A DNA stretch of 64,000 nt from an uncultured Rhodospirillaceae bacterium (GTDB lineage Bacteria > Pseudomonadota > Alphaproteobacteria > JAEULC01): NCBI GenBank assembly GCA_964557415.1, contig CAZLBB010000001.1, forward strand, positions 3,373 to 67,372. The letters run 5' to 3'. Under the pieces are notes generated by a model. The model ran no database searches. It was not told where the DNA came from and was given only the letters and a program-made list of their open reading frames with translations. Below, one piece after another: positions 20,137 to 61,916 of the stretch. The position numbers and the translations under genes were made by a program. Within the stretch, counting starts at the first letter, position 1; the number at the start of each line of letters is the position of its first letter.

Positions 20137-20976
20137 TCATGCACCCTGGTCGATGTTCATACCGCGGGCGACCAGCGAAGTCGGTGCGTCGTCCCGTGCT
20201 GGGACGCCCACCAGACCGACAAGACCTTGGGCAGGATGCCCGATCGATCGTGAGTTCCGCGATACGTGCCAGACGGTCATCCACAGCACGAAGATCAGGT
20301 TGATGATCAGCATCCACTCCCAGAGGGCCTTGCTGAAGACGAGCCAGGGCAGCTTTTTTTCCGGAAAGTCCGATCCGAACAGATCGGGGGAGTGCGTCGC
20401 CAGCCACACGATCTCGCAGATCCCGGTCGCGATCAGCGGCAACCCGATGAGGACGGCCGTGAGAGCGCCATACAACTGCGCATCGCGCGATCCCGGCGCC
20501 TGGCGGATCGCAATGGCCGTGAAGCAGGCAAAGCCGAAGGCGTAGCCGCCGAATCCGGCGCCGGTCGCCACTTCGTGGACGAATCGCACTTTCCCGAGAT
20601 TCGGAAAGAGAGCCCCCTCGATGCCCAGGGTCACCAACGCCACGGCGCCGATATACAGCAGCGCCAGGCCAAGACGGTTCAGCGATTGACGTCGCGGGAG
20701 CGTCAGGAACAGGTAGTGGACAACCGGCACCGACAGCAGGCCGACGAGGATCAGGCCGACACCGAAATAACGGTGGCCGAGAGGGTTGTCGCGCGCGGAG
20801 GCCAGGGAGGAAACCCAGCGGTAGCGCAGATCGAACGCGGTCGGGTAATAGGATGCGGCGATCGCGACCGAGCCGAAGAAGCTGGCCACGATCAGCAGGC
20901 ACAGGACATGGGCCGCCGTCGTGGATGGTGCCAGGGCGCGCAACGCACGGACGGCAGCCGGACTAACCAACGCCAC
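20137..20976 (-). CDS. Hypothetical polytopic membrane protein
   Basis: 279 aa, about 7 predicted TM segments, no recognisable motif. Overlaps the upstream LptF/G-like gene by 14 nt; the start is uncertain. Confidence 0.5.
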   Translation of the reverse strand: MALVSPAAVRALRALAPSTTAAHVLCLLIVASFFGSVAIAASYYPTAFDLRYRWVSSLASARDNPLGHRYFGVGLILVGLLSVPVVHYLFLTLPRRQSLNRLGLALLYIGAVALVTLGIEGALFPNLGKVRFVHEVATGAGFGGYAFGFACFTAIAIRQAPGSRDAQLYGALTAVLIGLPLIATGICEIVWLATHSPDLFGSDFPEKKLPWLVFSKALWEWMLIINLIFVLWMTVWHVSRNSRSIGHPAQGLVGLVGVPARDDAPTSLVARGMNIDQGA

Positions 20977-22156
20977 CGTCCCTCATCGACGGTGCGGTCC
21001 TGCGCCAGGTCGGCATGGAGAGCGCTGCGTAGCGCTGCAACCGACCAAGCAGCTCGCCGCGCGGAAGTCGCCTGTCGCAGTACGCGAGCATGAGCGCACA
21101 GGCAAGTCCCGGCAGGATCGTGTTCAGGTGGATAACCGGCACCAGAACCGTGGCTTTCGATGCCGCGCTGGCAAGGAGCAGGTTCAGCGCCTGCACGATC
21201 AGGACGGCGCCGCAGGCAAAGAGGATGCGCACGCGCGCGCCACGGCGGTCGTACGCTCCGACGAGCAATGCGCACAAAGCGATCGCGACATAGGTCAGGC
21301 ACAGCAGCGGCAAGGCAATGCGCTGATTGCCTTCCGCCAGGGATCGACCGTAGAGCTCGCGATCGCGCGGCGTCTCGGTCGGTGGATTCAGCAGCTCCAT
21401 GAGGCCGCGTTCGGCCATGCCGCGCTCGCGAATCCGGGCGGGTCCGGACTCGCGCATGTCGATCTCCGTGACGTGCTGCTCGAAATAGACCATCGAAAGC
21501 TTTCCGGTGCGCCGCTCGAACTCCTGCATATTGCCGCGCTTGAGCAGGACTTTGTTGACGTCGCCCACGCGCGACAAGAGGGCGCTTTCGGCGGTGACGG
21601 TCTTCGAGCGCTCCGGGTCGCGGTCGTCCTGGACGAGGACCCCGATCAGCTCGCCGCTTCGCGTGCGCTCCCGGACGTATATGGTGACCTTCGCCCCGAG
21701 CCGGCTGAACTCGCCCTCCTTGATCATCAGGTTCGCGACGCGGTGCTTCAGGAAGAATTCGATATCCTTGAACTCGCCGAACGATGCCGGCATGAAATAG
21801 GCCGACATCGACAGGCATACCAGCGTCGTGGCGCCGGCGACGATGACCGCAGGCAGCGCGAGCGCGGCGCTGCTCATGCCGGCCGAGCGCAGCACCACGA
21901 GCTCGTTGTCGATGCTCAGCTTGTGATAGATGAAAAGTACGCTGGCGAACCCGGCGAGCGGCAACAGGCCGAACAGCAGCATCGGCATGGTCAGCAGCAT
22001 GATGTACAGGTAGACGGAGACCGACAGGCCGCGGTTGATGATGTAGTCCAGGAACACCAGGGACCGCGTGATGCATGCGACGGCGACGACGATCGCGATA
22101 ACTGCGACGGTGGTCTTGACCAGGGCGCCGAGGATGTAGCGCTGCGGCAGGGTCAT
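20963..22156 (-). CDS. LptF/LptG (YjgP/YjgQ) family permease, orphan
   Basis: 397 aa. N-terminal MTLPQRYILGALVKTTV and overall YjgP/YjgQ topology. No LptB-like ATPase or partner permease is adjacent. Confidence 0.75.
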   Translation of the reverse strand: MTLPQRYILGALVKTTVAVIAIVVAVACITRSLVFLDYIINRGLSVSVYLYIMLLTMPMLLFGLLPLAGFASVLFIYHKLSIDNELVVLRSAGMSSAALALPAVIVAGATTLVCLSMSAYFMPASFGEFKDIEFFLKHRVANLMIKEGEFSRLGAKVTIYVRERTRSGELIGVLVQDDRDPERSKTVTAESALLSRVGDVNKVLLKRGNMQEFERRTGKLSMVYFEQHVTEIDMRESGPARIRERGMAERGLMELLNPPTETPRDRELYGRSLAEGNQRIALPLLCLTYVAIALCALLVGAYDRRGARVRILFACGAVLIVQALNLLLASAASKATVLVPVIHLNTILPGLACALMLAYCDRRLPRGELLGRLQRYAALSMPTWRRTAPSMRDGGVG

Positions 22157-22353: not shown

Positions 22354-22384
22354 GAAGGACCGCTTCTCGCGAAGCGGCCCTTCC
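22354..22384 (-). terminator. Hairpin downstream of the DMGDH-family gene (candidate intrinsic terminator or 5' UTR structure)
   Basis: aaggaccgcttc-tcgc-gaagcggccctt, a 12-bp stem with one mismatch. On the minus-strand transcript it is followed by uucguuugg. It lies about 220 nt after the DMGDH stop and about 200 nt before the LptF/G-like start. Confidence 0.3.
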
Positions 22385-22605
22385 ATTGTCCCTCGGTCGG
22401 TGCCGAGGACCAAAACGTCGGATCAGCTCACGCCCTGTCCAAGGCGGAGACAACCCAGGTCCCGGTGGTCGACCGAACATGACAATGAGACACTGGATCA
22501 CCTCCTTTCACGTTGTTGAACATGTGCAGCAATATGGCAAGGCGGGCGCGGTGTCACAAGAGTATTATTGCAGGCGGTATGCTGAGAATTGCCGCCGAAT
22601 CGCCC

Positions 22606-25041
22606 CTACATCCGCATTCGCTTCGCCTCGGGATCGAATAGTGGCTCGGCGACGACGGTGGCCTTGCGGCGGGCGCCGATGATCTCGATCTCAAAGGCGC
22701 CCTTGCCCGGGTCGCCGGCCAGTTCCTTCGGCACGTAGCCCTGCGCCAGCGACCGGTCGACGAAGTGCCCGTAGCCGCCCGAGGTGACCCAGCCGACCAC
22801 CCTGCCCCGGTGCCAGATCGGCTCGTCGCCCAGCACGTCGGCGTCCCCCGCGTCGACCACCATGCTGACCCGGCGCAGCCTGCCGCCGGTCTCCTTTTCC
22901 TTCATCGCGGCGTCGCGGCCAACGAAGTCGTTCTTGGCCAGATCGACGAAGCGGTCGAGCCCCGCCTCGAAGGGGCCGTAGATCGGCCGGAGCTCGCGGT
23001 ACCAGGTGGGGAAATTCTTCTCGAGCCGCAGCGAAAGCAGCGCCCGCATGCCGAAATTGATGACGCCTAGATCCCGGCCCGCCACCATGATCGCCTGGTA
23101 GAGCCGGCGCTGGTATTCCGGCGCCACCCAGATCTCGTAGCCAAGATCACCCGTATAGGTGACCCGGTTGACCATGGCCGGCACGCTGGCGACGTCCATC
23201 GCGCGGTGGTCGAGGAACTTGAACGCGGCATTCGACACGTCCGCGTCGGTCAGCTTCTGCAGCAGGTCGCGCGACTTCGGACCGGCGATGGACAGGCCGA
23301 CCAGGCTCATGTCGTAGCGCCGGATGCGGACGGAGCCGTCCATCGGCAGATGCCGCTCGAACCAGCGCATGTGGTGCTTCTGCGCCTGCGACGAGCCCCA
23401 GACGACGAAGCGCTCGTCGCCCGCCTTGGCGATGGTGAAGTCGCCGATCAGCTTGCCTTGCGGGTTCAGCATGGGCGTCAGGACGATGCGGCCCGCGCGC
23501 GGCATGCGGTTGGTCATGAGACGCGACAGCAAGGCCTCGGCGCCGGGGCCGGCCACCTCGTACTTGGCGAAATTGGCGATCTCGGTGACGCCGACGCCGT
23601 TGCGCACGCCGAGGCATTCCGCCTTCACGTGCGGGAAGTCGTTGGAGCGGTGGAACGACACGATGTCGGCGGCCTCGACGCCCGGTGGCGCGAACCACAG
23701 CGGCGTCTCGAGGCCCCAGCTGTCGCCCATCACCGCACCCTGGGCGATCATGACGTCGTAGAGCGGCGTGGTCTGCTGCGGCCGTGCCGCCGGCAGTTCC
23801 TCGTTGGGGAAGCGGATCGAGAAGCGGCGCGAATAGTTCTCGCGCACCTTGGCGTTGGTGTAAGGGCGCGTCGCCCATTCGCCGAAGCGCGCGATATCCA
23901 TGGCCCAGACGTCGAAGCCCGGATCGCCATCGACCATCCATTGCGACAGCGCCAGGCCCACGCCGCCGCCCTGGCTGAACCCGGCCATGACGGCGCAGGC
24001 GCACCAGAAATTCCGCAGGCCCTGCACCGGGCCGACCAGGGGATTGCCGTCGGGCGAGAAGGTGAAGGGCCCGTTGATCACACGCTTGATGCCGGCCTTG
24101 GCCATGGCGGGGAAATGCCTGAACCCCAGCTCGAGCGACGGCGCGATGCGGTCGAGGTCGGGCGGCAGCAGCTCGGTGCCGAAATCCCACGGCGTGGTGC
24201 GCGGCTGCCAGGGCACGCAGGCCTTCTCGTAGGTGCCGAGCACCATGCCGCTGCGCTCCTGCCGCATGTAGATCTCGGCCTTGAAGTCGATGGCGTGCGG
24301 CAGTTCGCGCCCGTTCTCCTTGTTGAAGGCGATGACCTCGGGCATGTCCTCGGTCACGAGATACATGTGCTCCATGGCGAGCACCGGCAGCTCGAGCCCG
24401 ACCATGCGGCCGATCTCACGCGCCCACAGGCCGCCGCAATTCACCACGTGCTCGGCCTGGATGCTGCCCTTGGTCGTGACCACGTCCCAGCCCCCGTCCG
24501 TGCGGGGATTGAGCGCGGTCACGCGCGTCTGCAGATAGATTTCGGCGCCGGCGATGCGCGCCGACTTGGCGTAGGCGTGGGTCGTGCCGGCCGGGTCGAG
24601 GTTGCCGTCGGCGGCGTCGAGCATGGCGCCGACGAAATACCGGTCGTCGAGCAGCGGCATCAGCTTGCGCGCCTCGGCCGCGCTCATCAGCTCGGTCTCG
24701 AGTCCGAGATAGCGAGCGCGCGCATGCGCCATCTTGAGCCACTCCATGCGCTCGGGCGTGTCCGCCAGCATCAGCCCGCCGGAGCGGTGCAGGCCGCAGG
24801 ACTGGCCGGAGATCTTCTCCAGCTCGTCGTAGAGTCCGATCGTGTAGCCCTGCAGCTTGGCGACGTTGGGATCGCCGTTCAGCGTGTGGAAGCCGCCGGC
24901 CGCGTGCCAGGTCGAGCCCGAGGTGAGCTGGTCGCGTTCGACCAGCACCACGTCGCGCCAGCCGGCCTTGGTCAGGTGATAGAGAACGCTGCAGCCGACT
25001 ACGCCGCCGCCGACGACCACGACCTGCGCATGCGACTTCAT
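22606..25041 (-). CDS. Dimethylglycine/sarcosine dehydrogenase family protein (FAD oxidoreductase plus GcvT-like aminomethyltransferase domains)
   Basis: ORF 22606..25077 trimmed to MKSHAQVVVVGGGVVGCSVLYHL, an FAD Rossmann motif. C-terminal GcvT-like folate-binding domain (GRVVGWVTSGGYGHFVDRSLAQGYV). Confidence 0.85.
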   Translation of the reverse strand: MKSHAQVVVVGGGVVGCSVLYHLTKAGWRDVVLVERDQLTSGSTWHAAGGFHTLNGDPNVAKLQGYTIGLYDELEKISGQSCGLHRSGGLMLADTPERMEWLKMAHARARYLGLETELMSAAEARKLMPLLDDRYFVGAMLDAADGNLDPAGTTHAYAKSARIAGAEIYLQTRVTALNPRTDGGWDVVTTKGSIQAEHVVNCGGLWAREIGRMVGLELPVLAMEHMYLVTEDMPEVIAFNKENGRELPHAIDFKAEIYMRQERSGMVLGTYEKACVPWQPRTTPWDFGTELLPPDLDRIAPSLELGFRHFPAMAKAGIKRVINGPFTFSPDGNPLVGPVQGLRNFWCACAVMAGFSQGGGVGLALSQWMVDGDPGFDVWAMDIARFGEWATRPYTNAKVRENYSRRFSIRFPNEELPAARPQQTTPLYDVMIAQGAVMGDSWGLETPLWFAPPGVEAADIVSFHRSNDFPHVKAECLGVRNGVGVTEIANFAKYEVAGPGAEALLSRLMTNRMPRAGRIVLTPMLNPQGKLIGDFTIAKAGDERFVVWGSSQAQKHHMRWFERHLPMDGSVRIRRYDMSLVGLSIAGPKSRDLLQKLTDADVSNAAFKFLDHRAMDVASVPAMVNRVTYTGDLGYEIWVAPEYQRRLYQAIMVAGRDLGVINFGMRALLSLRLEKNFPTWYRELRPIYGPFEAGLDRFVDLAKNDFVGRDAAMKEKETGGRLRRVSMVVDAGDADVLGDEPIWHRGRVVGWVTSGGYGHFVDRSLAQGYVPKELAGDPGKGAFEIEIIGARRKATVVAEPLFDPEAKRMRM

Positions 25042-28905: not shown

Positions 28906-28990
28906 GGTTTCCTCCCGATCGTTGGCGCGATTCTAGTCGGTACCCGCGTCCAAGCCCCACCCGTTGCTCGTCCGGAAATCGGACCGTCAG

Positions 28991-29012
28991 ATTGCATATT
29001 GTATAAAATCGA
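28991..29012. promoter_or_regulatory. AT-rich 22-bp operator-like motif GATTGcATATTGTATAAAATCG (copy 1)
   Basis: Sits in the divergent promoter between the MetE-like gene (minus) and the DapA-family gene (plus). A 16-mer is identical, and the 22-mer has one mismatch, to the reverse complement of 41666..41687. Confidence 0.55.
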
Positions 29013-29060
29013 CAATCTTGCTAATAATGCGTCCAGTCAGCCGTCCCAAGGGGGTGAAAC

Positions 29061-30014: not shown

Positions 30015-30183
30015 TTGACCCTCACCCTCCCGCCGAAACGGCGGGCCCCTCCCTCTCCCGCTGCGCGGGCGAGGGGTTTGAGAATCTGACCCTCGCCACC
30101 CGCGCTTCGCGGGGGGAGAGGGATACGAAGGGTTAGGCGCGGCTTTTTGGCCGCGCCTTACCCGCAGTTGGGTGAGGGGGGAA
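30015..30183. repeat. Intergenic palindromic repeat element, copy A (REP/MITE-like)
   Basis: Terminal imperfect inverted repeats ccctcaccctccc and gggtgaggggg. Internal G/C-rich palindromes and the hairpin aggcgcggc-tttttg-gccgcgcct at 30135..30158. Related in style and motifs (gggagaggg, gggtt) to copies B and C. Confidence 0.5.
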
Positions 30184-30223
30184 CGGCGCCGCACGAGCGG
30201 ATCATCCTTCCTTTGGAAACTCG

Positions 30224-34102: not shown

Positions 34103-37100
34103 TCAGCCGACCGCCGCCAAGCCCGCCTGGTCCATGGCAGCGTTGAGGGCGGGCAGCGACTTCTCGCGAACGCGCTGCCAGCGCGCCGTCAGGGCGTCGA
34201 GCTCGGCGGTCAGCACGGCATAGACGTCGCGCGCCTGCTGCGCGGGGGCGAAGTCGCCGCTGTCGACCGTGTCGAACAGGGCGTTGAGCTTCTCGTGCAG
34301 GCCGCTGCCGTAGAGCTGCGCGCCGGGATAGTGCACGTCGATCAAGGCGCCCCGGATCGATCGCAGCTCGGCGGCGAGCTTGGCCGCCCCGTCGCGCACG
34401 GCGGCGCGCTCGCCGGCTCGGCGCCCGACGAGCGCGGTCTGCGCCAGCAGCGCGTCGATGTCGTTGATCATCGTGTTGACCGCGGTGAGCCTGCCGATGA
34501 TCTCGCCGAGGAAGATGAACTGCGCCTTGAGGTCGGCGAGCTTCGTCCTGACGCGCGGGTCGCGCTCGATCTCGAAGGACTGCGTCTGGCTCGCGCCGTC
34601 GACCACCAAGCGCACCGCGTAGCGGCCCGGCACGACCATGGCGCCGTCGGCGCGGTTCCACGGCTCCAGGTCCTTCGCCAGCACATTGGGTACGCCAATG
34701 AGACGCCGGTTCCACAGGAAGCGGTTGACGCCCGGCTCGGCGGGCACATCGGCGTAGTGCCTCAGCTCCCTGCCCTTCTCGTCGAGGAAGGTCAGGCTCG
34801 CGCCGCCCTTCGGCTTTTCGGGCAGGTAGTACTGCACGACCACGCCGTAGGGCGGGTTCTTGCCGGAATCGAGCAGCAGGTTGTCGTAGCTGCCGTCCGG
34901 CTGCTTCAGCGGCAGCACGCGGATCACGTTGGTGCCGGTGCGCGGATAGCTGATCATTCCCGGCCAGGCCGGACCGCGCGACGCGGTCGCCTGCGCCGCG
35001 ACCCCGCCGAAGCCGCCGATCACGCGCATGCGCACGCGCGAGCGCGGCTGGAACAGGTGCGCCGTCGGCTTGCCGCTCTTCTTTTCCTTGATCAGGTCGT
35101 AGAGCTGGTGGAACGGCGTCAGGTCGTCGAGGATCCAGATCGACCTTCCGTGCGTCGCCACCACCATCTCGACGCCCTTGATCACGAGGTCGTAGATCGG
35201 CGCCACCGGCAGGTTGCCGCCCAGGCGGTGCCACTGGCCGCCGTCGTCGAACGAGACGTAGATGCCGGTCTCGGTGCCGCAATAGAGCAGGCCGCGGCGG
35301 CTGGGGTCCTCGCGGATCGTGCGCGTGAATTCGCCGTCGGGAATGCCGGAGACGATCTTCGTCCAGCTCTTGCCGCCGTCCGCGGTCTTGTAGAGATAGG
35401 GCCTGGTGTCGTCGAGCTTGTAGCGCGTCGCGGCGATGTAGCAGGCGTCCTGGTGATGCGGCGAGGCCTCGACGATGCTGATCAACGCCCATTCGGGCAG
35501 CGCGTTGGCCCTGGCGCCCTCGACCTTCGCGTTCCTGCCGTCGGGCGTGATGTCGTCCCAGCGCTTGCCGCCGTCCCTGGAGCGGTGCACGAGCCCGTCG
35601 TCCGTGCCGCACCATAGCCAGTTGCGCCGCTGCGGCGATTCGGCCAGCGCGAAGATCGTGCAATAGACCTCGGCGCCGGTGTTGTCGCGCGTGATCGGCC
35701 CGCCCGAGGGGCCGAGCCGCGACCTGTCGTTGCGCGTCAGGTCGGGGCTCACCACCTCCCAGCACGCCCCGTTGTCGCGCGAGCGATGCAGGTGCTGCGA
35801 GCAGACCCACAGCACGTCGGGATCGTGCCGGCTGTAGTGGATCGGGAAGGTCCAGTTGAAGCGGTACTTCAGCGCGTCGGCGCCGACGCCCCAGCCGTAG
35901 AGTTCGGGCCAGACCGTGTTCTGCCAGTCCTGTCCCGTCTTGTGGTCGAACAGGTACATGACGTCGTTGGTGCAGCGCCGCCCGATCGGACCGGAGGCGA
36001 CCACCAGATCGGGGTTGTCGTGCTTGATGGCGATGTAGCCGCTCTCGCCGCCGCCCGGCTTGATCCAGTCGCGCTCGGTGATCGCCCCGATCGGCGAGGC
36101 GCTGGGGATGCTGATCGCGGTGTTGTCCTGCTGCGAGGCGTAGACGCGGTAGGGGAACCGGCTGTCGGTGGTGACGTGGTAGAGCTGCGCGGTCGGCTGG
36201 TTGTAGATCGACGACCAGGACTGGCCGCCGGTGAAACTGACACAGGCGCCACCGTCGTTGCCCTCGATCATGCGCTTCGGATTCTTCGGGTCGATCCACA
36301 GCGCATGGTCGTCGCCATGCGGCGTCGGCACCTGCAGGAAGGTCCTGCCGGCGTCGATCGACTTCCACAGACGGTAGTTCTGCACATAGACCGTGTCGGG
36401 GTCCTGCGGATCGGCGGTCACGTGCATGTAGTACCAGGGCCGCGTGCGCAGGCCGGAGAACTCGGACGCGCGCTCGAAGCTCCGCCCGCCGTCGTCGGAG
36501 CGGAACATGGCGCCGTCGTCGGCCTCGACCAGCGCCCAGACGCGGCCATAGCCGCGCCCGCCGACCGGCTCGGGCGAGACGGCGACGCCGATCTTGCCGA
36601 GCAGGCCCTTGGGCAGGCCGGACGCGCGCGAGATGTCAGTCCAGGTGTCGCCGCCGTCGGTCGAGCGCCACAGCCCGCATTCCTCGCCGCCGCTGATCAG
36701 CACGTGCGGATAGCGCTGCGCCTGCCAGATCGGCGCGTAGAGGATGTTCGGGTTGACCGGGTCGAGCGCGATGTCGTGCGAGCCGGCGCGGTCGCTCTTG
36801 TAGAGCACGTTCTCCCAGGTCCTGCCGCCGTCCTTCGAGCGGAACACGCCGCGCTGCCGGTTGCGGCCCCAGGCATGGCCCAGCGCCGCGACATAGACGA
36901 GATCCGGGTCGGCCGGATGCACGACGATGCGGCCAATATGGCGCGTGTCGTCGAGGCCGAGATGGGTCCAGGTCTTGGCCCCGTCGACCGACTTGTAGAC
37001 GCCGTCGCCGTGCGACACGTCGTTGCGGATGCAGGCCTCGCCGGTGCCGGCATAGATGACATTGGGCGCCGAGGGCGCTACGGCGATCGCGCCGACCGCC

Positions 37101-37321
37101 GCGGTACGGAAGAACCCGTCGGTCATGCAGAGCCAGGTCTGCCCGGCGTCGGTCGTCTTCCACACGCCGCCGGCACAGGCGCCGAAATAGAAGGTGGCAG
37201 GATCCGCCGGGCAGCCGGCGACGGCCACCACGCGCCCGCCGCGATGCGGGCCGATCAGACGCCAGTCCAGGCTGCTTAGGAGGCTCGCCTGAATCCCCTG
37301 TACCGCGCTCGCCAAGGTCAT
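34103..37321 (-). CDS. 1072-aa BNR/Asp-box repeat protein (sortilin/VPS10- or GH74-like double beta-propeller), no signal peptide
   Basis: More than 10 SxDxGxTW-type repeats (TDAGQTW, SVDGAKTW, SKDGGRTW, STDGGDTW, SIDAGRTF, SRDGGKRW, TADGGKSW). ORF trimmed to MTLASAVQG. Confidence 0.8.
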   Translation of the reverse strand: MTLASAVQGIQASLLSSLDWRLIGPHRGGRVVAVAGCPADPATFYFGACAGGVWKTTDAGQTWLCMTDGFFRTAAVGAIAVAPSAPNVIYAGTGEACIRNDVSHGDGVYKSVDGAKTWTHLGLDDTRHIGRIVVHPADPDLVYVAALGHAWGRNRQRGVFRSKDGGRTWENVLYKSDRAGSHDIALDPVNPNILYAPIWQAQRYPHVLISGGEECGLWRSTDGGDTWTDISRASGLPKGLLGKIGVAVSPEPVGGRGYGRVWALVEADDGAMFRSDDGGRSFERASEFSGLRTRPWYYMHVTADPQDPDTVYVQNYRLWKSIDAGRTFLQVPTPHGDDHALWIDPKNPKRMIEGNDGGACVSFTGGQSWSSIYNQPTAQLYHVTTDSRFPYRVYASQQDNTAISIPSASPIGAITERDWIKPGGGESGYIAIKHDNPDLVVASGPIGRRCTNDVMYLFDHKTGQDWQNTVWPELYGWGVGADALKYRFNWTFPIHYSRHDPDVLWVCSQHLHRSRDNGACWEVVSPDLTRNDRSRLGPSGGPITRDNTGAEVYCTIFALAESPQRRNWLWCGTDDGLVHRSRDGGKRWDDITPDGRNAKVEGARANALPEWALISIVEASPHHQDACYIAATRYKLDDTRPYLYKTADGGKSWTKIVSGIPDGEFTRTIREDPSRRGLLYCGTETGIYVSFDDGGQWHRLGGNLPVAPIYDLVIKGVEMVVATHGRSIWILDDLTPFHQLYDLIKEKKSGKPTAHLFQPRSRVRMRVIGGFGGVAAQATASRGPAWPGMISYPRTGTNVIRVLPLKQPDGSYDNLLLDSGKNPPYGVVVQYYLPEKPKGGASLTFLDEKGRELRHYADVPAEPGVNRFLWNRRLIGVPNVLAKDLEPWNRADGAMVVPGRYAVRLVVDGASQTQSFEIERDPRVRTKLADLKAQFIFLGEIIGRLTAVNTMINDIDALLAQTALVGRRAGERAAVRDGAAKLAAELRSIRGALIDVHYPGAQLYGSGLHEKLNALFDTVDSGDFAPAQQARDVYAVLTAELDALTARWQRVREKSLPALNAAMDQAGLAAVG

Positions 37322-37385: not shown

Positions 37386-38288
37386 TTACCGCCGATAGCG
37401 CCGCTGCACCATGAGGTTGGCGGCGGCCGTGAGCACGAGCGTCGCCGACATGAGGATGAAGGCGACGGCGCTGCCGAGCGGCCAGTTGCTCTTGATCGCG
37501 AACTGGATGTAGACGAGCGGCCCCATCATGACGAACTGCGGCCCGCCCAGCAGCACCGGCGTGGCATAGGCGTTCATCGTGAGGATGAAGCAGAAGATTC
37601 CGCCGGCGACGAAGCCGGGCAGTGCCAGCGGCAGCAGCACGCGGCGGAACATGGTCCAGGGGCCGGCGCCCAGGCTGAAGGCCGCCTCCTCGACCGCGCG
37701 GTCGATGCCCTCGATCACGCTCTGCAGCGTCAGCACGACATAGGGCAGGTTCACGGCCAGGATGCCGACGATGACGGCGGTCTCGGTGAACATGATGGTC
37801 AACGGCTCGCCGATCAACCCGAGCCACTGCAGGCTGACGTTGAGAAAGCCCTTGTTGCCGAACAGGGTCATCCATCCGGCCGCGCGCACCGCGTTGCCGA
37901 CGAACAGCGGCAGCACGACCAGCATGATCAGCAGGTGCTTGTACCGGCTCTGCGTCCGCGCGATCACGTAGGCGAGCGGAAACGCAAGGACCACGCAGAT
38001 CGCGGTGACGATCACGGCGACGCGCAGCGTGCGATAGAACGCGGCGAGGAAATACGGATCGGTAAAGAACAAGACGTACTGCTTGATCGTGAACGCGTCG
38101 ATCATCAGCACGCCGGGCTTGAAGTCGTTCAGGCTGTAGCGGAACAGGAACAGGATCGGCAGCAGCAGTCCGACCGTGACGAAGATCGTCGCCGGCCCGA
38201 TCAAGAGTCCGGCGGTCGACAGCCGCCCGCCGCGCATTTCGCGCGCGGCGAGCGACTGCAACGTGCCGGCCGTGGCGGACGCGGTCAT
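37386..38288 (-). CDS. ABC transporter permease (PotB/PotH-like)
   Basis: 300 aa, 6 TM segments and an EAA-like loop (EEAAFSLGAGPWTMFRRVLLPLALPG). Confidence 0.85.
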   Translation of the reverse strand: MTASATAGTLQSLAAREMRGGRLSTAGLLIGPATIFVTVGLLLPILFLFRYSLNDFKPGVLMIDAFTIKQYVLFFTDPYFLAAFYRTLRVAVIVTAICVVLAFPLAYVIARTQSRYKHLLIMLVVLPLFVGNAVRAAGWMTLFGNKGFLNVSLQWLGLIGEPLTIMFTETAVIVGILAVNLPYVVLTLQSVIEGIDRAVEEAAFSLGAGPWTMFRRVLLPLALPGFVAGGIFCFILTMNAYATPVLLGGPQFVMMGPLVYIQFAIKSNWPLGSAVAFILMSATLVLTAAANLMVQRRYRR

Positions 38289-38298
38289 GCCTCCGTCC

Positions 38299-38459
38299 TG
38301 TCCCCCCTCCCCTTGCGGGAGAGGGTTAGGGGAAGGGGTATGTTACCGCGAGGCACGTCGTGCCCGACGTGGAAAGAGTGTTCCCGCGCTACCGCGCGGA
38401 AACCCCTCCCCCAGTCCCCCTCCCGCCCCTTCGACAAGAGCTCAGGAGGGAGGGGGAAC
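38299..38459. repeat. Intergenic palindromic repeat element, copy B (REP/MITE-like), between the binding-protein and permease genes
   Basis: Starts gtcccccctccccttgcgggagagggttagggg, which is near-identical to the start of copy C. The right end gggagggggaac is an imperfect inverted copy. Several internal hairpins (ggcacgtcgtgcc, ccgcgctaccgcgcgg). Confidence 0.55.
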
Positions 38460-38501
38460 TGAAATATCGTCCCGTCGGGCACTGTTCGGACCTTCGCGCT
38501 G

Positions 38502-39587
38502 CTAGGCCTTGAACTGCTTGTCCCAGAAGTCGCGCAGGTCCGGGCCCTTCTTGGTGAGGAACTCCAGGTCCGGGTTGACCAGCAAGGCCGCCTCTTCCTC
38601 GGAGAAGCCGATGCGCTTCCTGAGTTCGGGGTCGACCTTGGCGTTGCTGACGACCGGGTTGTAGCCCATGTCGACGGCGAAGGCCTCCTGCGCCGATGGC
38701 TCGAGCGCCGAGTTGAGGAAGGCATAGGCGCCTTCCTTGTTCGGCGCGTTCTTTGGGATGGTGAAGCCCGACATGTAGGTGATGATGCCGTCCTTGGGCG
38801 CGATCGTCTGCACCGGGATGCCGGCGTTCTGCCACTGCACCGCGCGCGCCTTCCACATGATGCAGAGCCCGATCTCCTCGGTCTTGAGCCCTTGTGCCAG
38901 CGCCTCGTTGGTCGGGTAGATCCGCGGCTTCAGCTTCTTCAGCTCCAGCAGCATCTTCTTGGCGGTCTCGAAGTCACCGGTCTTGCCGCCGCCGGCCAGC
39001 GCCGCAGCCATGGTCGTGTAGTTGAACTGGATGTCGATCACGCCGACCTTGCCCTGGTGCTTCGGGTCCCACAGATCGACGATCTTGGTCGGCGGCGTCG
39101 GGATCAGCTTCGGGTTGTAGAGCACGACCTTGCCGCTGTAGATGTGCGGCGAGATGTACGAGCCCTTGTCGATGCTGAAGTTCTTCAGGATGTTCTTGGA
39201 GTTCGGCATCTTCGCCGGGTCGAGCTTCTCCAGGAGCCCGAGCTCGGTCAGCTCGCCGATGTCGGTGTCGGCGAGCGCCTGGATGTCGGACGTGCCCTTG
39301 GGCAGACGCGCCTCGGCCTGAACCTTGGTCTTGCGCTGCTGGCTGCCGAGATCGTCGTGCACCATCTCCCAGCCCTTCGGCGCCATCAGCGGGTTGGAGA
39401 TGTTCTTGGCGAGCAGCTTGGAATAGTCGCCGCCCCAGGTGCCGAGCACAACTTTCTTGCTCTGCGACCAGGCTTGGCCGGTCGGCCCGAAGATGCCGAG
39501 CGCGCTCGCGCCGGCAACGGCCGCGGCGCCGCCCTTGAGCGCCTCGCGGCGGGTGATGATGGTGGGTGTCCCCAGACGTTTGGTCAT
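38502..39587 (-). CDS. ABC transporter periplasmic binding protein (PotD/PotF-like, family 1)
   Basis: ORF trimmed to MTKRLGTPTIITRREALKGGAAAVAGASALG, a Tat signal. PotD-like fold sequence. Confidence 0.85.
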   Translation of the reverse strand: MTKRLGTPTIITRREALKGGAAAVAGASALGIFGPTGQAWSQSKKVVLGTWGGDYSKLLAKNISNPLMAPKGWEMVHDDLGSQQRKTKVQAEARLPKGTSDIQALADTDIGELTELGLLEKLDPAKMPNSKNILKNFSIDKGSYISPHIYSGKVVLYNPKLIPTPPTKIVDLWDPKHQGKVGVIDIQFNYTTMAAALAGGGKTGDFETAKKMLLELKKLKPRIYPTNEALAQGLKTEEIGLCIMWKARAVQWQNAGIPVQTIAPKDGIITYMSGFTIPKNAPNKEGAYAFLNSALEPSAQEAFAVDMGYNPVVSNAKVDPELRKRIGFSEEEAALLVNPDLEFLTKKGPDLRDFWDKQFKA

Positions 39588-39633
39588 CGTGTCTCTCCTC
39601 CTGTTTGAGCCGTTGTCGAACGCATCCGGCGCG

Positions 39634-40704
39634 TCAGGCCTGCGGCCTGCCGGCCTCCTCCGCAAACACGACGCCGGCCTCGGACGGCCAGCCGACCTCG
39701 ACCTTGTCGCCCTCGCTCGGCAGTCTCCCGTCGGCGCGGTTCGGCTGGCTGACCACGACGCGATCGGCCGCCGAGACGCGCACGTGCACGTCGATGTTGG
39801 CGCCGAGATAGGAGACGAACTCCACCGTACCCGGCAGGCGGTTGGGCAGGCCCTGCGCCGCGGGACCGAGCGCCAGCCGCTCGGGCCGGAGCGCGATCAC
39901 CGCCGGGCCGGCCTGGCCGCCGGCGCAGGCGATCTTGAGGCCGCCCGCCGTCTCGAACTGGCCAGGGCCGACCACCTTGCCCGGCAGGATGTTGCTGCGG
40001 CCGACGAAGCCGGCGACGAAGCGGTCGGCCGGCCGCTCGTAGAGGTCGCGCTGCGAGCCGACCTGACGCACCTCGCCCTCGGACATGACCACCAGCCGGT
40101 CGGCCATGATCAGCGCCTCTTCCTGGTCGTGCGTCACCATCACCGTGGTGATGCCGAGCTGGCGCTGCAGCTCGCGGATCTCCACGCGCACCGTCTCGCG
40201 CAGCTTGGCGTCGAGGTTCGACAGCGGCTCGTCCAGCAGCAGCACGTCGGGCCGGATGGCGAGCGCGCGCGCCAGCGCCACGCGCTGCTGCTGCCCACCC
40301 GAGAGCTGGCGCGGCAGGCGCTCGGCGAAGCCGTCGAGCCGGACCATGCGCAGCGCCTCGGCGACGCGCGGCTTGGTCTCGGCCGGCGCGATCTTGCGCA
40401 TCTCGAGGCCGAAGGCGACGTTCTCCGCCACGGTCAGGTGCGGGAACAAGGCATAGCTCTGGAATACCATCCCGGCGTTGCGCTTCCACGGCGGCAGCGC
40501 CGTGACCTCGCGCCCGCCCAGGCGTACGCGCCCGCCGGTTGGCGCGACGAATCCGGCGATCATGCGCAAGGTCGTGGTCTTGCCGCAGCCGCTCGGCCCC
40601 AGCAGCACGACGAACTCGCCGTCGGCGATGTCGAGCGTGACGTCGCTGACCGCGACCGTCGGGCCGAAATGCTTGGAAAGATGCTGCAGTTCGAGCCGCG
40701 CCAT
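39634..40704 (-). CDS. ABC transporter ATP-binding protein (PotA-like, with C-terminal TOBE-like domain)
   Basis: Walker A GPSGCGKTT, LSGGQQQRVALARAL and Walker B LLLDEPLSNLD. Confidence 0.9.
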   Translation of the reverse strand: MARLELQHLSKHFGPTVAVSDVTLDIADGEFVVLLGPSGCGKTTTLRMIAGFVAPTGGRVRLGGREVTALPPWKRNAGMVFQSYALFPHLTVAENVAFGLEMRKIAPAETKPRVAEALRMVRLDGFAERLPRQLSGGQQQRVALARALAIRPDVLLLDEPLSNLDAKLRETVRVEIRELQRQLGITTVMVTHDQEEALIMADRLVVMSEGEVRQVGSQRDLYERPADRFVAGFVGRSNILPGKVVGPGQFETAGGLKIACAGGQAGPAVIALRPERLALGPAAQGLPNRLPGTVEFVSYLGANIDVHVRVSAADRVVVSQPNRADGRLPSEGDKVEVGWPSEAGVVFAEEAGRPQA

Positions 40705-40708
40705 TTCC

Positions 40709-41536
40709 CTACACCACGCGCGAGAGCTTGACGAAACGGTCTGTAATGATCATCGCGCCCGCGATCAGCCCGATCTGCAGCACGGAGACCGCGGCGATGG
40801 TCGGGTCGATCTTCCATTCCAGGTACTGCAGGATCGCGATCGGCAGCGTGGTGCGGCCGGCGCCGACCAAAAACAGCGTCATCTCGAGATTGCCGAACGA
40901 GACGACGAAGCCGAACAGCGCCGCCGCGACGATGCCCGGGCGGATGGTCGGCAGCGTCACGCGGAAGAAGGTCCGAACCGGCGTGGCCCCGAGATTCTGC
41001 GCCGCCTCCTCGATGCTGCGGTCGAAGCCGGCGAGGCTCGCCGTCACCAGGCGCACGCACCAGGGAATGACCAGCAGGATGTGGCCGGCGACAAGGCCGG
41101 CGATCGAGCCGAGGATCGGCAGTTCGGTCCAGATCGTGACTTCGACGTGGAACACGTAGATCGAGGTGCCGAGCACGATGCCCGGCACGACCAGCGGCAT
41201 CAGCAGCAGGCTGTTGAGCGCTTCGCGGCCGGGAAAGCGGAAGCGCGACACGCACAGCGCCGCCGGCACGCCGATCGACAGGCCCACGACCATGGCCGTC
41301 ACCGCGACCTGCAGGCTGAGCAGGAAGCCGTCGAAGAACTTCGGGTTGTTCCAGATCGAGGCGAACCAGCGCAGGCTGTAGCCGTCGGGCGGAAACGACG
41401 GGATCTCCTGGCGGAAGAAGGCAAGCCAGGTGACGAAGAACAGCGGCAGCAGGATGAAACCCAGCACGGCGCCGGCGGCGCCGTTGAGCGCCCAGCGCCC
41501 GAGCGTGCGGCTGTACACGGCGCCTTGCGAGGTCAT
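40709..41536 (-). CDS. ABC transporter permease (PotC/PotI-like)
   Basis: ORF 40709..41731 trimmed to MTSQGAVYSRTLGRWALNGAAGAVLGFILLPL. EAA loop EEAAQNLGATPVRTFFRVTLP. Confidence 0.85.
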   Translation of the reverse strand: MTSQGAVYSRTLGRWALNGAAGAVLGFILLPLFFVTWLAFFRQEIPSFPPDGYSLRWFASIWNNPKFFDGFLLSLQVAVTAMVVGLSIGVPAALCVSRFRFPGREALNSLLLMPLVVPGIVLGTSIYVFHVEVTIWTELPILGSIAGLVAGHILLVIPWCVRLVTASLAGFDRSIEEAAQNLGATPVRTFFRVTLPTIRPGIVAAALFGFVVSFGNLEMTLFLVGAGRTTLPIAILQYLEWKIDPTIAAVSVLQIGLIAGAMIITDRFVKLSRVV

Positions 41537-41665
41537 GCCGGGTCTCGACGGTCGCGCGCGACCGGGGCCCGTGCGCCGCCACGGCGCGCCCCGCGCTGCT
41601 GCTGCCGTTTTCCCCGATCGATCATGCGCCCCCGCGCCGAAGTTGCGACTCCATAGCAAGGCTGC

Positions 41666-41687
41666 CGATTTTATACAATATCCAATC
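41666..41687. promoter_or_regulatory. AT-rich 22-bp operator-like motif (copy 2, reverse orientation) inside the inverted repeat GCCGATT-N13-AATCGGC
   Basis: cgattttatacaatatccaatc is the reverse complement of copy 1 with one mismatch. It lies in the 230-bp divergent promoter region between the Pot-like operon start and the second GntR gene. Confidence 0.55.
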
Positions 41688-41766
41688 GGCATATTGCGGC
41701 ACGCCGTGTAGCCATGATACCAGGGCTGCAAGGCAAGCGCCCATAAGCCGCGCGTCCATACCTCTT

Positions 41767-42489
41767 ATGCAGGGCATCGCCCGCTTCCGGATCGAGGGCA
41801 TGAGCATTTCCGCCCCCAGGACCCCGAGCATGCCGTTCTCGCACCGCACGGTGGCCGCCTCGGCCGCGGACGCGATCCGGCGCAAGATCTTCGATGGCCA
41901 GCTCAAGGACGGCGAGCCGCTGCGCCAGGACCTGCTCGCCGCCGAGTTCGGCATCAGCCGCACGCCGGTACGCGAGGCGCTGGTGCAGCTCGAGGCCGAG
42001 GGCCTGGTCAAGATCGAGCCCCACAAGGGCGCCGTCGTCGCCGGCACGTCGCTGGCCAGCGTCGAGGAAACCTTCGAATTGCGCGAGGTTCTGGAGCCGA
42101 TGCTGCTCGAGCGCTCGGCGCCGCGCCTGACCGAGGACGACTTCCGCCAGATCGACGCCGTGCTGCAGGAATACTCGGACGAACTGCGCAATCACAACGT
42201 CAAGCGCTGGGGCGAGCTCAACACGCTGCTGCACGCCAAGCTCTATGCGCGCGCCGAGCGGCCGCAGATCCAGGCGATCGTCGACAAGCTGCTCAATACG
42301 TCGGACCGGTTCACCCGGCTGCAGCTGATCCTGACCCACGACCTCGAGCGCGCCGAGCGCGAGCACGACGAGATCGTCACGCTGTGCCGCAAGGGCGACT
42401 TCGCCGCCGCCGCCGCGACGCTGCGGCGCCACATCCGCGCGGTCAAGGACGCACTGGTCAAGTTCCTGGCGGAGCGGCCGGGCGCGTAG
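41767..42489 (+). CDS. GntR-family transcriptional regulator (FadR/FCD subfamily), second copy
   Basis: wHTH LRQDLLAAEFGISRTPVREAL plus an FCD domain. The start is ambiguous (41767, 41800 or 41830). Confidence 0.8.
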   Translation: MQGIARFRIEGMSISAPRTPSMPFSHRTVAASAADAIRRKIFDGQLKDGEPLRQDLLAAEFGISRTPVREALVQLEAEGLVKIEPHKGAVVAGTSLASVEETFELREVLEPMLLERSAPRLTEDDFRQIDAVLQEYSDELRNHNVKRWGELNTLLHAKLYARAERPQIQAIVDKLLNTSDRFTRLQLILTHDLERAEREHDEIVTLCRKGDFAAAAATLRRHIRAVKDALVKFLAERPGA

Positions 42490-52898: not shown

Positions 52899-52956
52899 CG
52901 CGAGGGAGCGGGCGGCAAGCAGCCTCTTGCCGCCCGCGCCCTCGAAGGGTCCGAAC

Positions 52957-53856
52957 ATGACCGCCGCCGTCGCCGCACCCGCCGCATCGGCGCCCGCGCG
53001 CCGCCGCAAGGCGCATTCCGGCGCGTTGTCGATCTGGTGGGTGCTGCCGGCGGTCCTGTTCCTGATCGTTTTCTACATCTTCCCCATCGCACAGAACGGC
53101 TATCGCGGCTTCTATCCCGAGTTCGCCGGCGCGGGTCTTGCGTTCAACCTCCAGGCCTATGCCAAGCTGCTGGGCGATTCCTTCTACCTGGGCGTCATCT
53201 TCGACACGTTCTGGCTGAGCGCGCTCGTGACACTGATCTGCCTGGCGATCGGCTATCCGGTCGCCTACTTCCTGGTGCGCTATTCCGGCCGATGGAGCGG
53301 CCTCATCATCTTCCTGCTGATCGCCCCGCTCCTGACCTCGATCATCATGCGCACCTACGGCTGGCGCGTGCTGCTGGCCCGGCGCGGCCTCGTCAACAAT
53401 CTTCTACTCGACCAGCTCGGCTGGATCGATGCGCCGCTCCGGCTCGTCAACACGCAGGGCTCCGCTGTCGTCGGGCTCGTGCATGTGCTGGTCCCGTTCA
53501 TGGTGCTGGCGATCGCCTCGGTGCTGCAGGGCATCGACACGCGCCTTGAGGAATCGGCGCGCATCCTGGGCGCCAACCGGTGGCAGACCTTCCTGCGCGT
53601 GACGCTGCCGCTCAGCCTCGACGGCATCGGCACCGGGGCGATCATGGTGTTCATGATCGCCAACGGCAGCTTCGTCACCCTGCTGCTGATCGGCGGCGAC
53701 AGCTTCCGCACCCTGCCCCTGCTGATCTACCAGCAGTTCAACACGACGCGCGACTTCGGCTTCGCGGCGGCGATGGGCAACCTGCTGCTGCTGTCGGCGG
53801 TGGGATGCCTATACCTGCAGCTTCGGCTCATACGACGGCGCGGGGTCAAGGGCTGA
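52957..53856 (+). CDS. ABC transporter permease (PotB-like)
   Basis: 6-TM permease with an EAA loop (EESARILGANRWQTFLRVTLP). The start could be 52927 or 52957. Confidence 0.8.
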   Translation: MTAAVAAPAASAPARRRKAHSGALSIWWVLPAVLFLIVFYIFPIAQNGYRGFYPEFAGAGLAFNLQAYAKLLGDSFYLGVIFDTFWLSALVTLICLAIGYPVAYFLVRYSGRWSGLIIFLLIAPLLTSIIMRTYGWRVLLARRGLVNNLLLDQLGWIDAPLRLVNTQGSAVVGLVHVLVPFMVLAIASVLQGIDTRLEESARILGANRWQTFLRVTLPLSLDGIGTGAIMVFMIANGSFVTLLLIGGDSFRTLPLLIYQQFNTTRDFGFAAAMGNLLLLSAVGCLYLQLRLIRRRGVKG

Positions 53857-57909: not shown

Positions 57910-59880
<1,971 letters not shown>

Positions 59881-59888
<8 letters not shown>

Positions 59889-60780
59889 CGCGCTCCCCCT
59901 TGAGCTTGGGATCGACGAAGTCGCGCAGCCCGTCGCCGATCATGTTGAGGGCGAAGACGACGACCAGGATGGCGACGGACGGCGCCATCGACAGCCACCA
60001 GGTGTCCAAGATGTTCTCGAAGCCCTCGCGGATCATGCCGCCCCAGGTCGGCGTCGGTGGCCGCACGCCGAGCCCGATGAAGCTCAACGAGGCCTCGACG
60101 CGGATGGCGGTGGCGAGCCACAGGCTGCCCATCACCAGGATCTCGGGGAAGATGTTGGGCAGGATGTGCACGGCCATGATGCGCGGGTGCGAGTAGCCGA
60201 GCGCCCGGCAGGCCTCGATGTAATCGCGCTCCTTGACGCTGACCGTCGGCGCGCGGGCGATGCGGGCGAAGGGCGGGATCGCCGTCAGCGCGATGGCGAA
60301 GATCAGGTTGCCGACGCTGGGCCCCATCATCGCCACGACCATGAGGCCGAGGATCAGCGACGGGAAGGACAGCAGCACGTCCATCACCTGCATGATGGCG
60401 ATGTCCAGCCGCCCGCCGAAATACCCCGCCACCATGCCGATCAGCGAGCCGATCACCATCGCGATCAGGATCGAGACGCCGCCGATCCACAAGCTGAGGC
60501 GCGCGCCGTAGACCAGGCGCGACCAGATGTCCCGGCCGTAACCGTCGGTGCCGAGGATGAACTCCCCCGACGGTCCCTTCAGCTTCTCCAGGAAGTTCTG
60601 CTCGAGCGGATCGTGCGTCGCGAGCACTGGCGCGAGGATAGCCGTCACCACCACGATCGCGAACGTCACGAGCCCGACCCAGGAGGTCTTGTTCGTGTTG
60701 AACGCGGACAGAAGCTGCCGCAGCGCGCGACTGGAGCGCAGCGGGGCGGCGGCGGCCGAATCCCCGGTCGCGACGTTCAT
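59881..60780 (-). CDS. ABC transporter permease (DppC/OppC-like)
   Basis: ORF 59881..61812 trimmed to [16 protein letters not shown]. The start overlaps the upstream stop (ATGA). Confidence 0.85.
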
Positions 60781-61718
60781 TGGTACTTCACCCGCGGGTC
60801 GATGAAGCCGTAGGTCAGGTCGGTCAGCAGATTCACGACCACGATGATGAAGGTGTAGACCACCATCAGGCCCTGCAGCATCGTGTAGTCGCGCTGCGTC
60901 AGCGCGCCGACGATCAGCTTGCCGAGGCCCGGCCGGTTGAACACGATCTCGGTCAGCACCGAGTTGCCGATCAGGATGCCGAGATACAGGCCGACCACGG
61001 TAACGACCGGGATCAGCGCGTTGCGCAGGCAGTGCTGCCAGACGACCGCAAGATGCGGCACGCCCTTGGCGCGCGCGGTGCGCACGTAGTCCTCGCCCAG
61101 CACCTCGAGCATCGAGGAGCGCGTCACGCGCGTAATATAGGCGGCCATGATGATGCCGAGATTGACCGAGGGCAGCGCCAGGTGCTGCAGCCGCTCGCCG
61201 AGCGAGCCGCCGCCGCCCGAGCTGATCACCGGGAACCACGACAGCTGGATGGCGAAGGCGAGCAGCAGCATGATCGCCATGACGAAGGCCGGGAAGGACA
61301 GGCCGAGCAGCGAGCCGATGCGCGTGGCGTAGTCGATCAGGCTGTTGCGATGCAGCGCGGACCAGGCGCCGAGCGGCACGCCGATGAGCGCGCCCAGCAG
61401 GATCGAGGCCAGCGTCAGTTCGATCGTGAAGGGGATGACGTTCAGCACCTCGCCGAGCACCGGGCGGCCGGTCACCAGCGACTCGCCCCAGTCGCCGCTG
61501 AGCGCGCCTTGCATGAAATCGACGTATTGCTCGACCAGCGGCCGGTCGAGGCCGAGGCGGACGCGCAGGGCCTGGATCGCCTCGGCCCCCGCCTGCTCGC
61601 CCAGCATCACCTGCGCCGGGTCGCCTGGCAGCACCCGCGCGACGAAGAACACGACGGTCAGCACGGCCAGCAGCGTCGGGACGGCGTATAGCAGGCGCTT
61701 GATCAGGTATTGCAGCAT
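60777..61718 (-). CDS. ABC transporter permease (DppB/OppB-like)
   Basis: [19 protein letters not shown], the typical DppB N-terminus. 313 aa. Confidence 0.85.
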
Positions 61719-61730
61719 CGCTTTTCTGCA

Positions 61731-61903: not shown

Positions 61904-61916
61904 GAGTAGAGTCAGC

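Follow-up and report, generated by a model that had tools for sequence, protein, structure and literature searches.

In a 64,000-nucleotide (nt) stretch of DNA from an uncultured Rhodospirillaceae bacterium (GCA_964557415.1, contig CAZLBB010000001.1, positions 3,373 to 67,372; hereafter the window), two inverted repeats, elements B (38300-38459) and C (61732-61901), each separate a binding-protein gene from a permease gene in an operon for an ATP-binding cassette (ABC) importer. B and C are probably recent copies of a widespread and probably selfish BoxC-type repeat that were inserted into these two spacers, where they may act as an mRNA hairpin, and were not placed there as a conserved regulator. 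This reading draws on the emptiness of the orthologous junctions in close relatives, on a terminal module shared with a multicopy repeat family, and on the distribution of that family, which favours binding-protein-to-permease junctions but is not confined to them.

Host operons and empty orthologous sites

Element B is an inverted doublet of ~160 nt that aligns end to end with the ~165-nt elements of Inquilinus and of Alphaproteobacteria bacterium MAG.417. Its spacer (38289-38501) separates two minus-strand genes, a PotD-like binding-protein gene upstream (38502-39665; Pfam SBP_bac_8, SBP_bac_6 and SBP_bac_1) and a permease gene downstream (37386-38288; Pfam BPD_transp_1), whose ribosome-binding site (RBS), GGAGG, lies just outside the element and whose ATG is found 11 nt past the element's end. 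The operon is headed by a further minus-strand permease gene (40709-41731; BPD_transp_1) and continues with an ATPase gene, the binding-protein gene, B, the permease gene and a gene for a 1072-residue Sortilin-Vps10/BNR-repeat protein (34103-37321, minus strand); this last gene, an unusual partner of a PotABCD-like importer, keeps its position in all close orthologous operons. Element C is a 170-nt inverted doublet whose 34-nt arms are 94% complementary. It lies in the spacer 61719-61916 between a DppA-like binding-protein gene (61917-63596; Pfam SBP_bac_5) and the first, DppB-like permease gene (60777-61718; Pfam BPD_transp_1 and BPD_transp_1_N), both on the minus strand, followed by a DppC-like second permease gene (59881-60780) and by two oligopeptide-type ATPase genes (58884-59888 and 57910-58887). 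These Pfam assignments uphold an earlier note on this DNA, which had placed B between PotD-like binding-protein and permease genes and C between dppA-like and dppB-like genes. The same note had both copies directly 3' of a binding-protein gene and before the first permease gene; the former is true of B and C, the latter of C but not of B, because the permease gene 40709-41731 heads the B operon.

Orthologues of the B operon, with permeases 92, 88 and 84% identical to that of the window, share its unusual gene order (divergent GntR gene, permease, ATPase, binding protein, permease, Sortilin-like gene), and their binding-protein-to-permease spacers measure 25, 27 and 14 nt, respectively. Compared with these empty sites, the B spacer holds ~186 nt extra, made up of the 160-nt element, a further 24 nt upstream of it and about two other bases, and alignment of the spacers indicated that the RBS was kept directly after B. 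The 24 additional bases (38460-38483, minus strand; agtgcccgacgggacgatatttca in mRNA sense) are likewise missing from the empty junctions and are partly paired with the B core in the predicted fold. The empty B-type junctions have no predicted structure of their own, with folds of -4 to -11 kcal/mol that are no better than those of shuffled sequences.

Syntenic orthologues of the C operon were found with permeases 97% (MAG.417, GCA_023150455.1, and a second assembly), 88, 85 and 84% identical, and with spacers of 81, 54, 55 and 59 nt that contain no module. Every one of them carries its own, different, plain GC-rich hairpin with an 11-16-base-pair (bp) stem (-35 to -50 kcal/mol). A third binding-protein-to-permease junction in the window (52899-52957, plus strand) likewise lacks a module and holds a plain GC hairpin of 12 bp (-40 kcal/mol). 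Since all four orthologues and this third junction carry one, a hairpin 3' of the binding-protein gene seems to meet a conserved requirement of the C type of operon. B and C fill two of the window's three junctions of this kind (hypergeometric p = 0.005 over 35 co-directional junctions, in a post hoc test).

The element is absent at four B-type loci, representing three distinct orthologue proteins, and at five C-type loci, representing four. Because close relatives with permeases 84-97% identical have the orthologous operons without the elements, B and C are taken to be lineage-specific insertions. Both accordingly show the presence/absence polymorphism at orthologous sites expected of a miniature inverted-repeat transposable element (MITE), as well as the size and ends of one, being non-coding, 160-170 nt long (below 300 nt) and bounded by inverted ends of 34-40 nt. 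Conservation at the junction among orthologous operons, as would be expected of an arrangement of the malE-REP-malF type, was found for neither.

Anatomy and family of the terminal module

The ends shared by B and C consist of a ~40-nt module, GTCCCCCCTCCCC-TTGC-GGGAGGGGG-TTA-GGGGGAGGGG. Its string GTCCCCCCTCCCCTTGCGGGAGRGGGTT is found in the window at 38300-38327 (plus strand), at 61732-61759 (plus strand) and, with one mismatch, at 61874-61901 (minus strand), and did not occur once in 100 dinucleotide-preserving shuffles, which rules out a chance likeness. The earlier note had described a near-identical 30-mer at the start of both elements; such a sequence is indeed shared, its length being corrected here to 28 identical nt within a similarity that extends to ~39 nt. 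In B, the left module (38300-38338, plus strand) runs through C-run, TTGC loop, G-run, TTA and G-run with one hairpin mismatch and a degenerate third G-run (GGGGAAGGGG), and the inverted right module (38403-38459, minus strand) is degenerate, retaining the hairpin CCCCCTCCC / GGGAGGGGG with its loop expanded to 23 nt. A subterminal GC hairpin in B (38381-38402, plus strand; TTCCCGCGC-TACC-GCGCGGAAA) corresponds to the CGCGCGCGGACGCGCGC hairpin that is conserved in the repeat family. In C, the left module (61732-61770, plus strand) forms the perfect hairpin CCCCCCTCCCC-TTGC-GGGAGGGGG followed by a degenerate third G-run (GGGGGAGAGG), the inverted right module (61862-61901, minus strand) likewise combines a perfect hairpin with a degenerate third run (GGAGGAAGGGG), the core contains an internal hairpin of 14-15 bp (61775-61808; GGCGCCAAGCGGCAA-CGCA-TTGCCGCTTGGCGC), and the subterminal hairpin (TTTGCGTGCCGCCGCGCG) is weaker than that of B. 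The canonical orientation of both elements is on the plus strand, i.e. antisense to both operons. Similarity between B and C is limited to the terminal modules and the short subterminal GC hairpin, and the cores are unrelated. The possibility that they are one MITE with a conserved core was rejected.

A triplex-type detector allowing at most one hairpin mismatch and at most two third-strand mismatches recovered exactly three modules in the window, at 38303-38338 (plus strand), 61734-61771 (plus strand) and 61863-61898 (minus strand), and none in 20 shuffles. The third G-run of each of the three has ~2 mismatches in 9, with hairpins intact or nearly so. As a result of this decay the potential of the B and C copies to form a triplex or G-quadruplex is weak.

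An exact 27-mer search of 185,579 species-representative genomes returned at least 116 stretches, with several copies per genome and many at contig ends. Among the matches listed, carriers comprised Inquilinus species, Acetobacteraceae, Rhodospirillales and other alphaproteobacterial genomes, together with Geomonas and Geobacter isolates and metagenome-assembled genomes (MAGs) of the Geobacterales, Desulfobacterales, a Nitrospirota MAG, Nitrosovibrio, Chromatiaceae and a Solirubrobacterales MAG. No match to the 27-mer was found in 2.9 million viral contigs, and the matches of a BLAST of element C in plasmid records were confined to Azospirillum plasmids and mislabelled E. coli chromosomes. The 121 matches listed could be lined up as a ~40-nt unit, (G)TCCCCCCTCCCC-TTGC-GGGAGGGGG-TTA-GGGGG(A/T)GGGG (39-mer GTCCCCCCTCCCCTTGCGGGAGGGGGTTAGGGGGAGGGG), in which the second G-run mirrors the first, and the resulting consensus from other genomes is perfect by the triplex criterion. 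The 25 nt upstream of the module (ttggtatttgcagttgccttataag and cggaaagggattaagggagtgaaag) were also observed to be conserved between copies in a Geobacteraceae MAG (loci L016, L041, L065, L069, L106 and L113) and in Desulfobacteraceae MAGs (L002, L025, L039, L051, L055 and L087), so that the module appears there to be embedded in larger clade-specific repeat units.

BLAST of element C identified the nrdA-nrdB spacer of E. coli (GTCCCCTCTCCCCTTGCGGGAGAGGGTTAGGGTGAGGGG, 86% identity). The 39-nt consensus equals the E. coli module at 36 of 39 positions (~92%), with identical TTGC and TTA loops, and the three changes from the E. coli copy jointly put C.G*G in place of one T.A*T triad; in copies of the Geobacter type, T*A.T stands in for the remaining A*A.T triad, as the triad rule predicts. 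In a set of 5398 genomes, the median number of places that the E. coli module occupies in a genome is 15. Bergler (1992) and Hoyne and Maher (2000) are said to be further sources on the motif to which it belongs. By full-text search its string was located in two papers (PMC4666352 and PMC5100583), whereas the exact variant of the window gave no literature match in a text search. Holder et al. (2015; PMC4666352), who use the names BoxC, PIT element and TMECO, interpret the motif as a class II purine-motif intrastrand triplex; they counted 3610 occurrences in 262 proteobacterial genomes, all of them intergenic, noted five inverted pairs in MG1655 and saw no connection with gene class, operon position or mobile elements. 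Kaplan et al. (2016; PMC5100583) describe it as a conserved G-quadruplex/hairpin/duplex switch, HPG1/HPG2, on the basis of circular dichroism (CD) data and at sites that include pstB-pstA.

The window modules and this family agree in plan (GT, C-run, TTGC, G-run, TTA, mirror G-run, with identical loops), in conserved stems combined with variable loops, in being intergenic and multicopy, often as closely spaced inverted pairs on opposite strands, and in occurring inside operons, such as at pstB-pstA. They differ in their stems, which read C6-T-C4 / G3-A-G5 / G5-A-G4 here, in their hosts, which are Rhodospirillales-like Alphaproteobacteria with the exact sequence also in Geobacterales and other groups, in that the pairs flank a ~115-nt core with a conserved CGCG hairpin to give an oriented unit of ~165 nt, and in an excess at binding-protein-to-permease junctions that is not reported for E. 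coli. As the exact published TMECO pattern, CCCTCNCCC N3-6 GGGNGAGGG N3 GGGNGAGGG, is unmatched by the stems here (CCCCCCTCCCC / GGGAGGGGG / GGGGGAGGGG), the module is classed as a variant BoxC / PIT member and not as TMECO proper. Rfam returned no family at threshold for B or C, its matches being generic long hairpins (plant miRNA precursors) far below their cut-offs.

In the fetched loci, in all of which genes were called with a codon-position GC model, a relaxed scan identified 54 inverted doublets of clade-typical length, ~105 nt in Geobacterales and 155-186 nt in Inquilinus, MAG.417 and the window. The oriented alignment of the long type consists of left module, short semi-conserved stretch, variable core, subterminal hairpin (CGCGCGCGGA-CGCGCGC) and right module, with termini GT...AC, and both B and C conform to this plan. 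MAG.417, which lacks the element at its C-type junction, carries many modules elsewhere; one of them occupies a further SBP_bac_5-to-permease junction of the same contig (L040). A record titled Mycobacterium sp. KBS0706 (L116) also contains an Inquilinus-type 165-nt element, including its typical CGCG hairpin, and this title may not reflect the organism. Of the 121 hits listed, 62 lie between co-directional, 16 between convergent and 4 between divergent genes, 31 lack a called gene on one or both sides, and 11 lie inside called open reading frames (ORFs), including 8 that have a called neighbour on either side; of the 90 hits flanked in this way, 82 are therefore intergenic. The 31 hits without a flanking gene are mostly near a contig end, as expected for a repeat that breaks assemblies. 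Two module pairs were found in frame in flexible inter-domain linkers, one between the lipoyl and E3-binding domains of a 2-oxoacid dehydrogenase E2 (L001, 1980-2072, Acetobacteraceae MAG JBAWFF010000525.1; ...PPPNPLPQGEGGLPIGESPLPLREGIRGRGP...) and one between the two ABC domains of a double-ATPase protein (L034, ~4200-4300, Alphaproteobacteria MAG CAVTEC010000007.1; ...PPPPNPLPQGEGGCGLLSSPSPCGRGLRGGGP...). Such copies in two coding genes count as selfish behaviour. The palindromic elements of Rickettsia, reportedly described by Ogata et al. in 2000, are similar in lying in frame inside protein genes, although their sequence and host are unrelated and B and C are themselves intergenic.

Junction preference, RNA structure and competing explanations

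The earlier note had proposed that other binding-protein-to-permease junctions be surveyed for the element, and in the fetched loci it is over-represented there. At 56 distinct co-directional sites outside the window, the upstream gene encodes a binding protein in ~8 (Peripla_BP_6 3, SBP_bac_3 2, SBP_bac_1 2, SBP_bac_5 1) and the downstream gene a permease in 8 (BPD_transp_1 5, BPD_transp_2 3), with ABC ATPases at 3 upstream and 3 downstream positions (all Pfam). Pairwise verification left six binding-protein-to-permease junctions (L007, L040, L047, L048, L071 and L083), which cover five binding-protein families; L083 is an SBP_bac_3-to-permease site of Inquilinus limosus DSM 16000. This proportion, 6/56, compares with 3/347 at other co-directional junctions of the same loci (Fisher p = 3e-4, odds ratio about 14) and with 2/181 when control gaps were restricted to at least 40 nt (p = 0.003), the odds ratio being put at about 11-14 overall. 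Single modules showed no bias with respect to the transcribed strand (24 against 30), and the long elements overall were divided between 11 sense and 9 antisense copies, whereas all five long-type elements at binding-protein-to-permease junctions (L040, L071, L083, B and C) are antisense.

The transcribed B spacer is predicted to fold into stacked local hairpins (-124.6 kcal/mol, z -6.1) and the transcribed C spacer into a structure closed by a 27-bp perfect stem (-126.8 kcal/mol, z -9.0). No sigma-70 promoter or intrinsic terminator consensus was detected inside B, C or their spacers, which fits the lack of promoter and terminator activity of E. coli PIT elements (PMC4666352). Literature to which PMC4666352 refers holds that RNA does not form purine-motif triplexes, so that a role at the RNA level would have to depend on the hairpin, perhaps also on a G-quadruplex.

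The arrangement had been likened in the earlier note to malE-REP-malF, and the comparison holds for strand, transcription unit and position directly 3' of the binding-protein gene, but not for the repeat itself, which belongs to the BoxC / PIT / TMECO family and not to REP. The REP between malE and malF, and the measurement of its effect on malE mRNA, are reportedly the work of Newbury et al. in 1987. The REP/BIME case shares with B and C a palindromic repeat directly after the binding-protein gene of an operon and a predicted stable RNA stem-loop that possibly guards the upstream message; it differs in its unrelated sequence with a GTAG-type head, and in that B and C are recent insertions missing from the orthologues. 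The head of B and C is GTCC instead of the GT[AG]G of RAYT-associated REPs, and no RAYT was seen among the genes between spaced modules. REPIN / RAYT systems, which Nunvar (2010) and Bertels and Rainey (2011) are said to have described, resemble the present family in having inverted doublets of hairpin units that fold into one long hairpin and many extragenic copies per genome; in contrast, no RAYT was seen near the modules here, GT[AG]G is lacking, and REPs are species-specific while this module is identical across phyla. The Correia/NEMIS elements of Neisseria and the ERIC/IRU elements of enterobacteria, reportedly treated by De Gregorio et al., are similarly MITE-like, 100-170 nt long and bounded by terminal inverted repeats, but their sequences are unrelated to B and C. 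Correia/NEMIS and ERIC/IRU elements are co-transcribed with their neighbours as RNA hairpins that RNase III or RNase E process and that alter mRNA stability; REP in malEFG and the Correia and ERIC elements uncouple messages by means of the hairpin. The malE-REP-malF analogy is plausible for B and C as an effect, and is not established as the reason for their presence.

According to the favoured reading, which is held to be probable, B and C are copies of a ~165-nt non-coding MITE/REPIN-like interspersed repeat with inverted ~40-nt BoxC-type module ends and a fast-diverging core, which would spread within genomes and which, as the empty orthologous sites show, entered the binding-protein-to-permease spacers of two ABC-importer operons in this lineage only. 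Such junctions may be among the few places within an operon that tolerate, or already hold, a strong stem-loop, so that insertions there would survive and persist and give rise to the observed enrichment. Once co-transcribed, the element would form a very stable, long GC-rich hairpin that should stop 3'-to-5' exonucleases and might, as a long perfect duplex, be cut by RNase III. In that case the binding-protein cistron would outlast the permease cistrons and the two messages would be uncoupled. At C the element would replace the orthologues' plain GC hairpin in function, and at B it would introduce structure where previously there was none.

Retention of the element as an adaptive regulator, kept for the sake of an RNA hairpin that stabilises the binding-protein message and reduces expression of the membrane components, like the REP between malE and malF, is considered unlikely. 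It would agree with the junction enrichment, with the single orientation of the five long-type elements at such junctions, with the strong plain hairpins at the C-operon orthologues and the window's third junction and with the very stable predicted folds. However, the element is missing from all orthologous operons examined, including the relative with the 97%-identical permease, and the B junction had no hairpin before insertion. Junctions of other kinds make up ~89% of the co-directional sites, the long elements taken together fall in both orientations almost evenly, copies are also found between convergent genes and inside coding genes, and E. coli PIT elements lack terminator and promoter activity and any in vivo effect (PMC4666352). 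A considerably less probable explanation places the function in DNA, with the modules forming intrastrand triplexes or G-quadruplex/hairpin switches in single-stranded DNA that pause replication or promote rearrangement, the operon position being incidental. The module does follow the purine-motif triad rule, its third run being a mirror image of the second in which G faces G, and A faces either A or T, and a single, fully compensated triad separates the consensus from the E. coli version; the E. coli motif moreover forms a triplex in vitro according to CD as well as nuclear magnetic resonance data, loci carrying it show more local rearrangement (PMC4666352), and the CD data of Kaplan et al. 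speak for a G-quadruplex/hairpin switch (PMC5100583). In the window, by contrast, the third runs have decayed while the hairpins stayed intact, which indicates that triplex or G-quadruplex potential is not maintained; in vivo footprinting in E. coli detected no stable triplex (PMC4666352), and a structure acting in DNA offers no reason for the preference for binding-protein-to-permease junctions.

Several points count against reading B and C as selfish insertions that such junctions tolerate. Neither a transposase nor a RAYT nor any other mobilising gene turned up beside the modules or between them; genes lying between spaced modules and the ORFs in large gaps were housekeeping (secretin, aminotransferase, methyltransferase) or gave no Pfam hit, and no parent insertion sequence with the ends of B and C was seen among the genes between spaced modules. 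There is no clear target-site duplication, with at most a 4-nt ACAG repeat flanking B and a C spacer that cannot be aligned to the empty site, and the published survey similarly gives no link to mobile elements (PMC4666352). For want of a mobilising gene and a clear target-site duplication, mobility is deduced from presence/absence and copy number only. Over its whole length the C spacer is unlike its counterpart in the 97%-identical relative, and recombinational replacement and insertion followed by decay would therefore be indistinguishable as origins of C. The enrichment controls are local, part of the binding-protein reference set came from sites with the element, and binding proteins of families outside that set could be missed in the counts, although the genes listed upstream of each permease detected speak against a large undercount of binding-protein junctions. 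Finally, the same orientation in five of five long-type elements is not predicted by pure tolerance; with n = 5 it is only a hint.

The proposal can be carried further to a cross-phylum, actively mobile family whose ends are the BoxC-type modules and whose ~165-nt form, in ABC-rich Alphaproteobacteria, would be inserted or retained in one orientation at binding-protein-to-permease junctions, replacing native hairpins and retuning the ratio of binding protein to permease, and could also be absorbed in frame into protein linkers. This extended version is regarded as doubtful.

Other features of the window and significance

The sole Rfam hit in the window at gathering threshold is the Caulobacter small RNA CC2171 (RF01867), matched over the full-length model at 22356-22517 (minus strand) with 76.4 bits against a cut-off of 75, within the 449-nt gap between the genes 20963-22156 and 22606-25041. 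A different palindromic element of G/C runs, probably copy A of the earlier note, is located at 30017-30185 between same-direction DHDPS-family and Abhydrolase_10 genes, with outer arms GACCCTCACCC...GGGTGAGGGGGGAAC, inner CCCTCTCCC / GGGAGAGGG-like runs and a predicted fold of -139.8 kcal/mol (z -7.9); at the level tested it has no module in common with B or C. An AT-rich 34-nt inverted repeat, 88% complementary and with the core ATTGTATAAAATCG, was also observed in two divergent promoter regions, upstream of the DHDPS-family gene (28990-29023) and between the head of the B operon and the GntR/FCD regulator gene 41767-42489 (41654-41687). It is likely to be a shared operator of that regulator.

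The module family (BoxC / PIT / TMECO / HPG1-2) and its habit of forming inverted pairs are already known, and no description was found of the ~165-nt oriented unit in Inquilinus-like Alphaproteobacteria, of its empty/filled pairs, of its junction excess or of its in-frame linker copies. The findings on B and C accordingly extend a known kind of repeat and do not define a new kind. How BoxC / PIT / TMECO repeats spread and what they do has been a question since the 1990s, and to this the present case adds clean pairs of empty and filled sites between close relatives, an oriented composite unit with GT...AC ends, a measurable binding-protein-to-permease preference and a junction at which the repeat occupies the exact place of its relatives' ordinary hairpin. 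For annotation, the lesson is that such spacers should be labelled as interspersed repeats and not as operon-specific regulatory sites. If the mobile-family reading is true, it would provide BoxC / PIT repeats with a mechanism of spread and a recurrent co-opted function, and the idea of a selfish repeat that doubles as an mRNA hairpin can now be tested in culturable Inquilinus strains.

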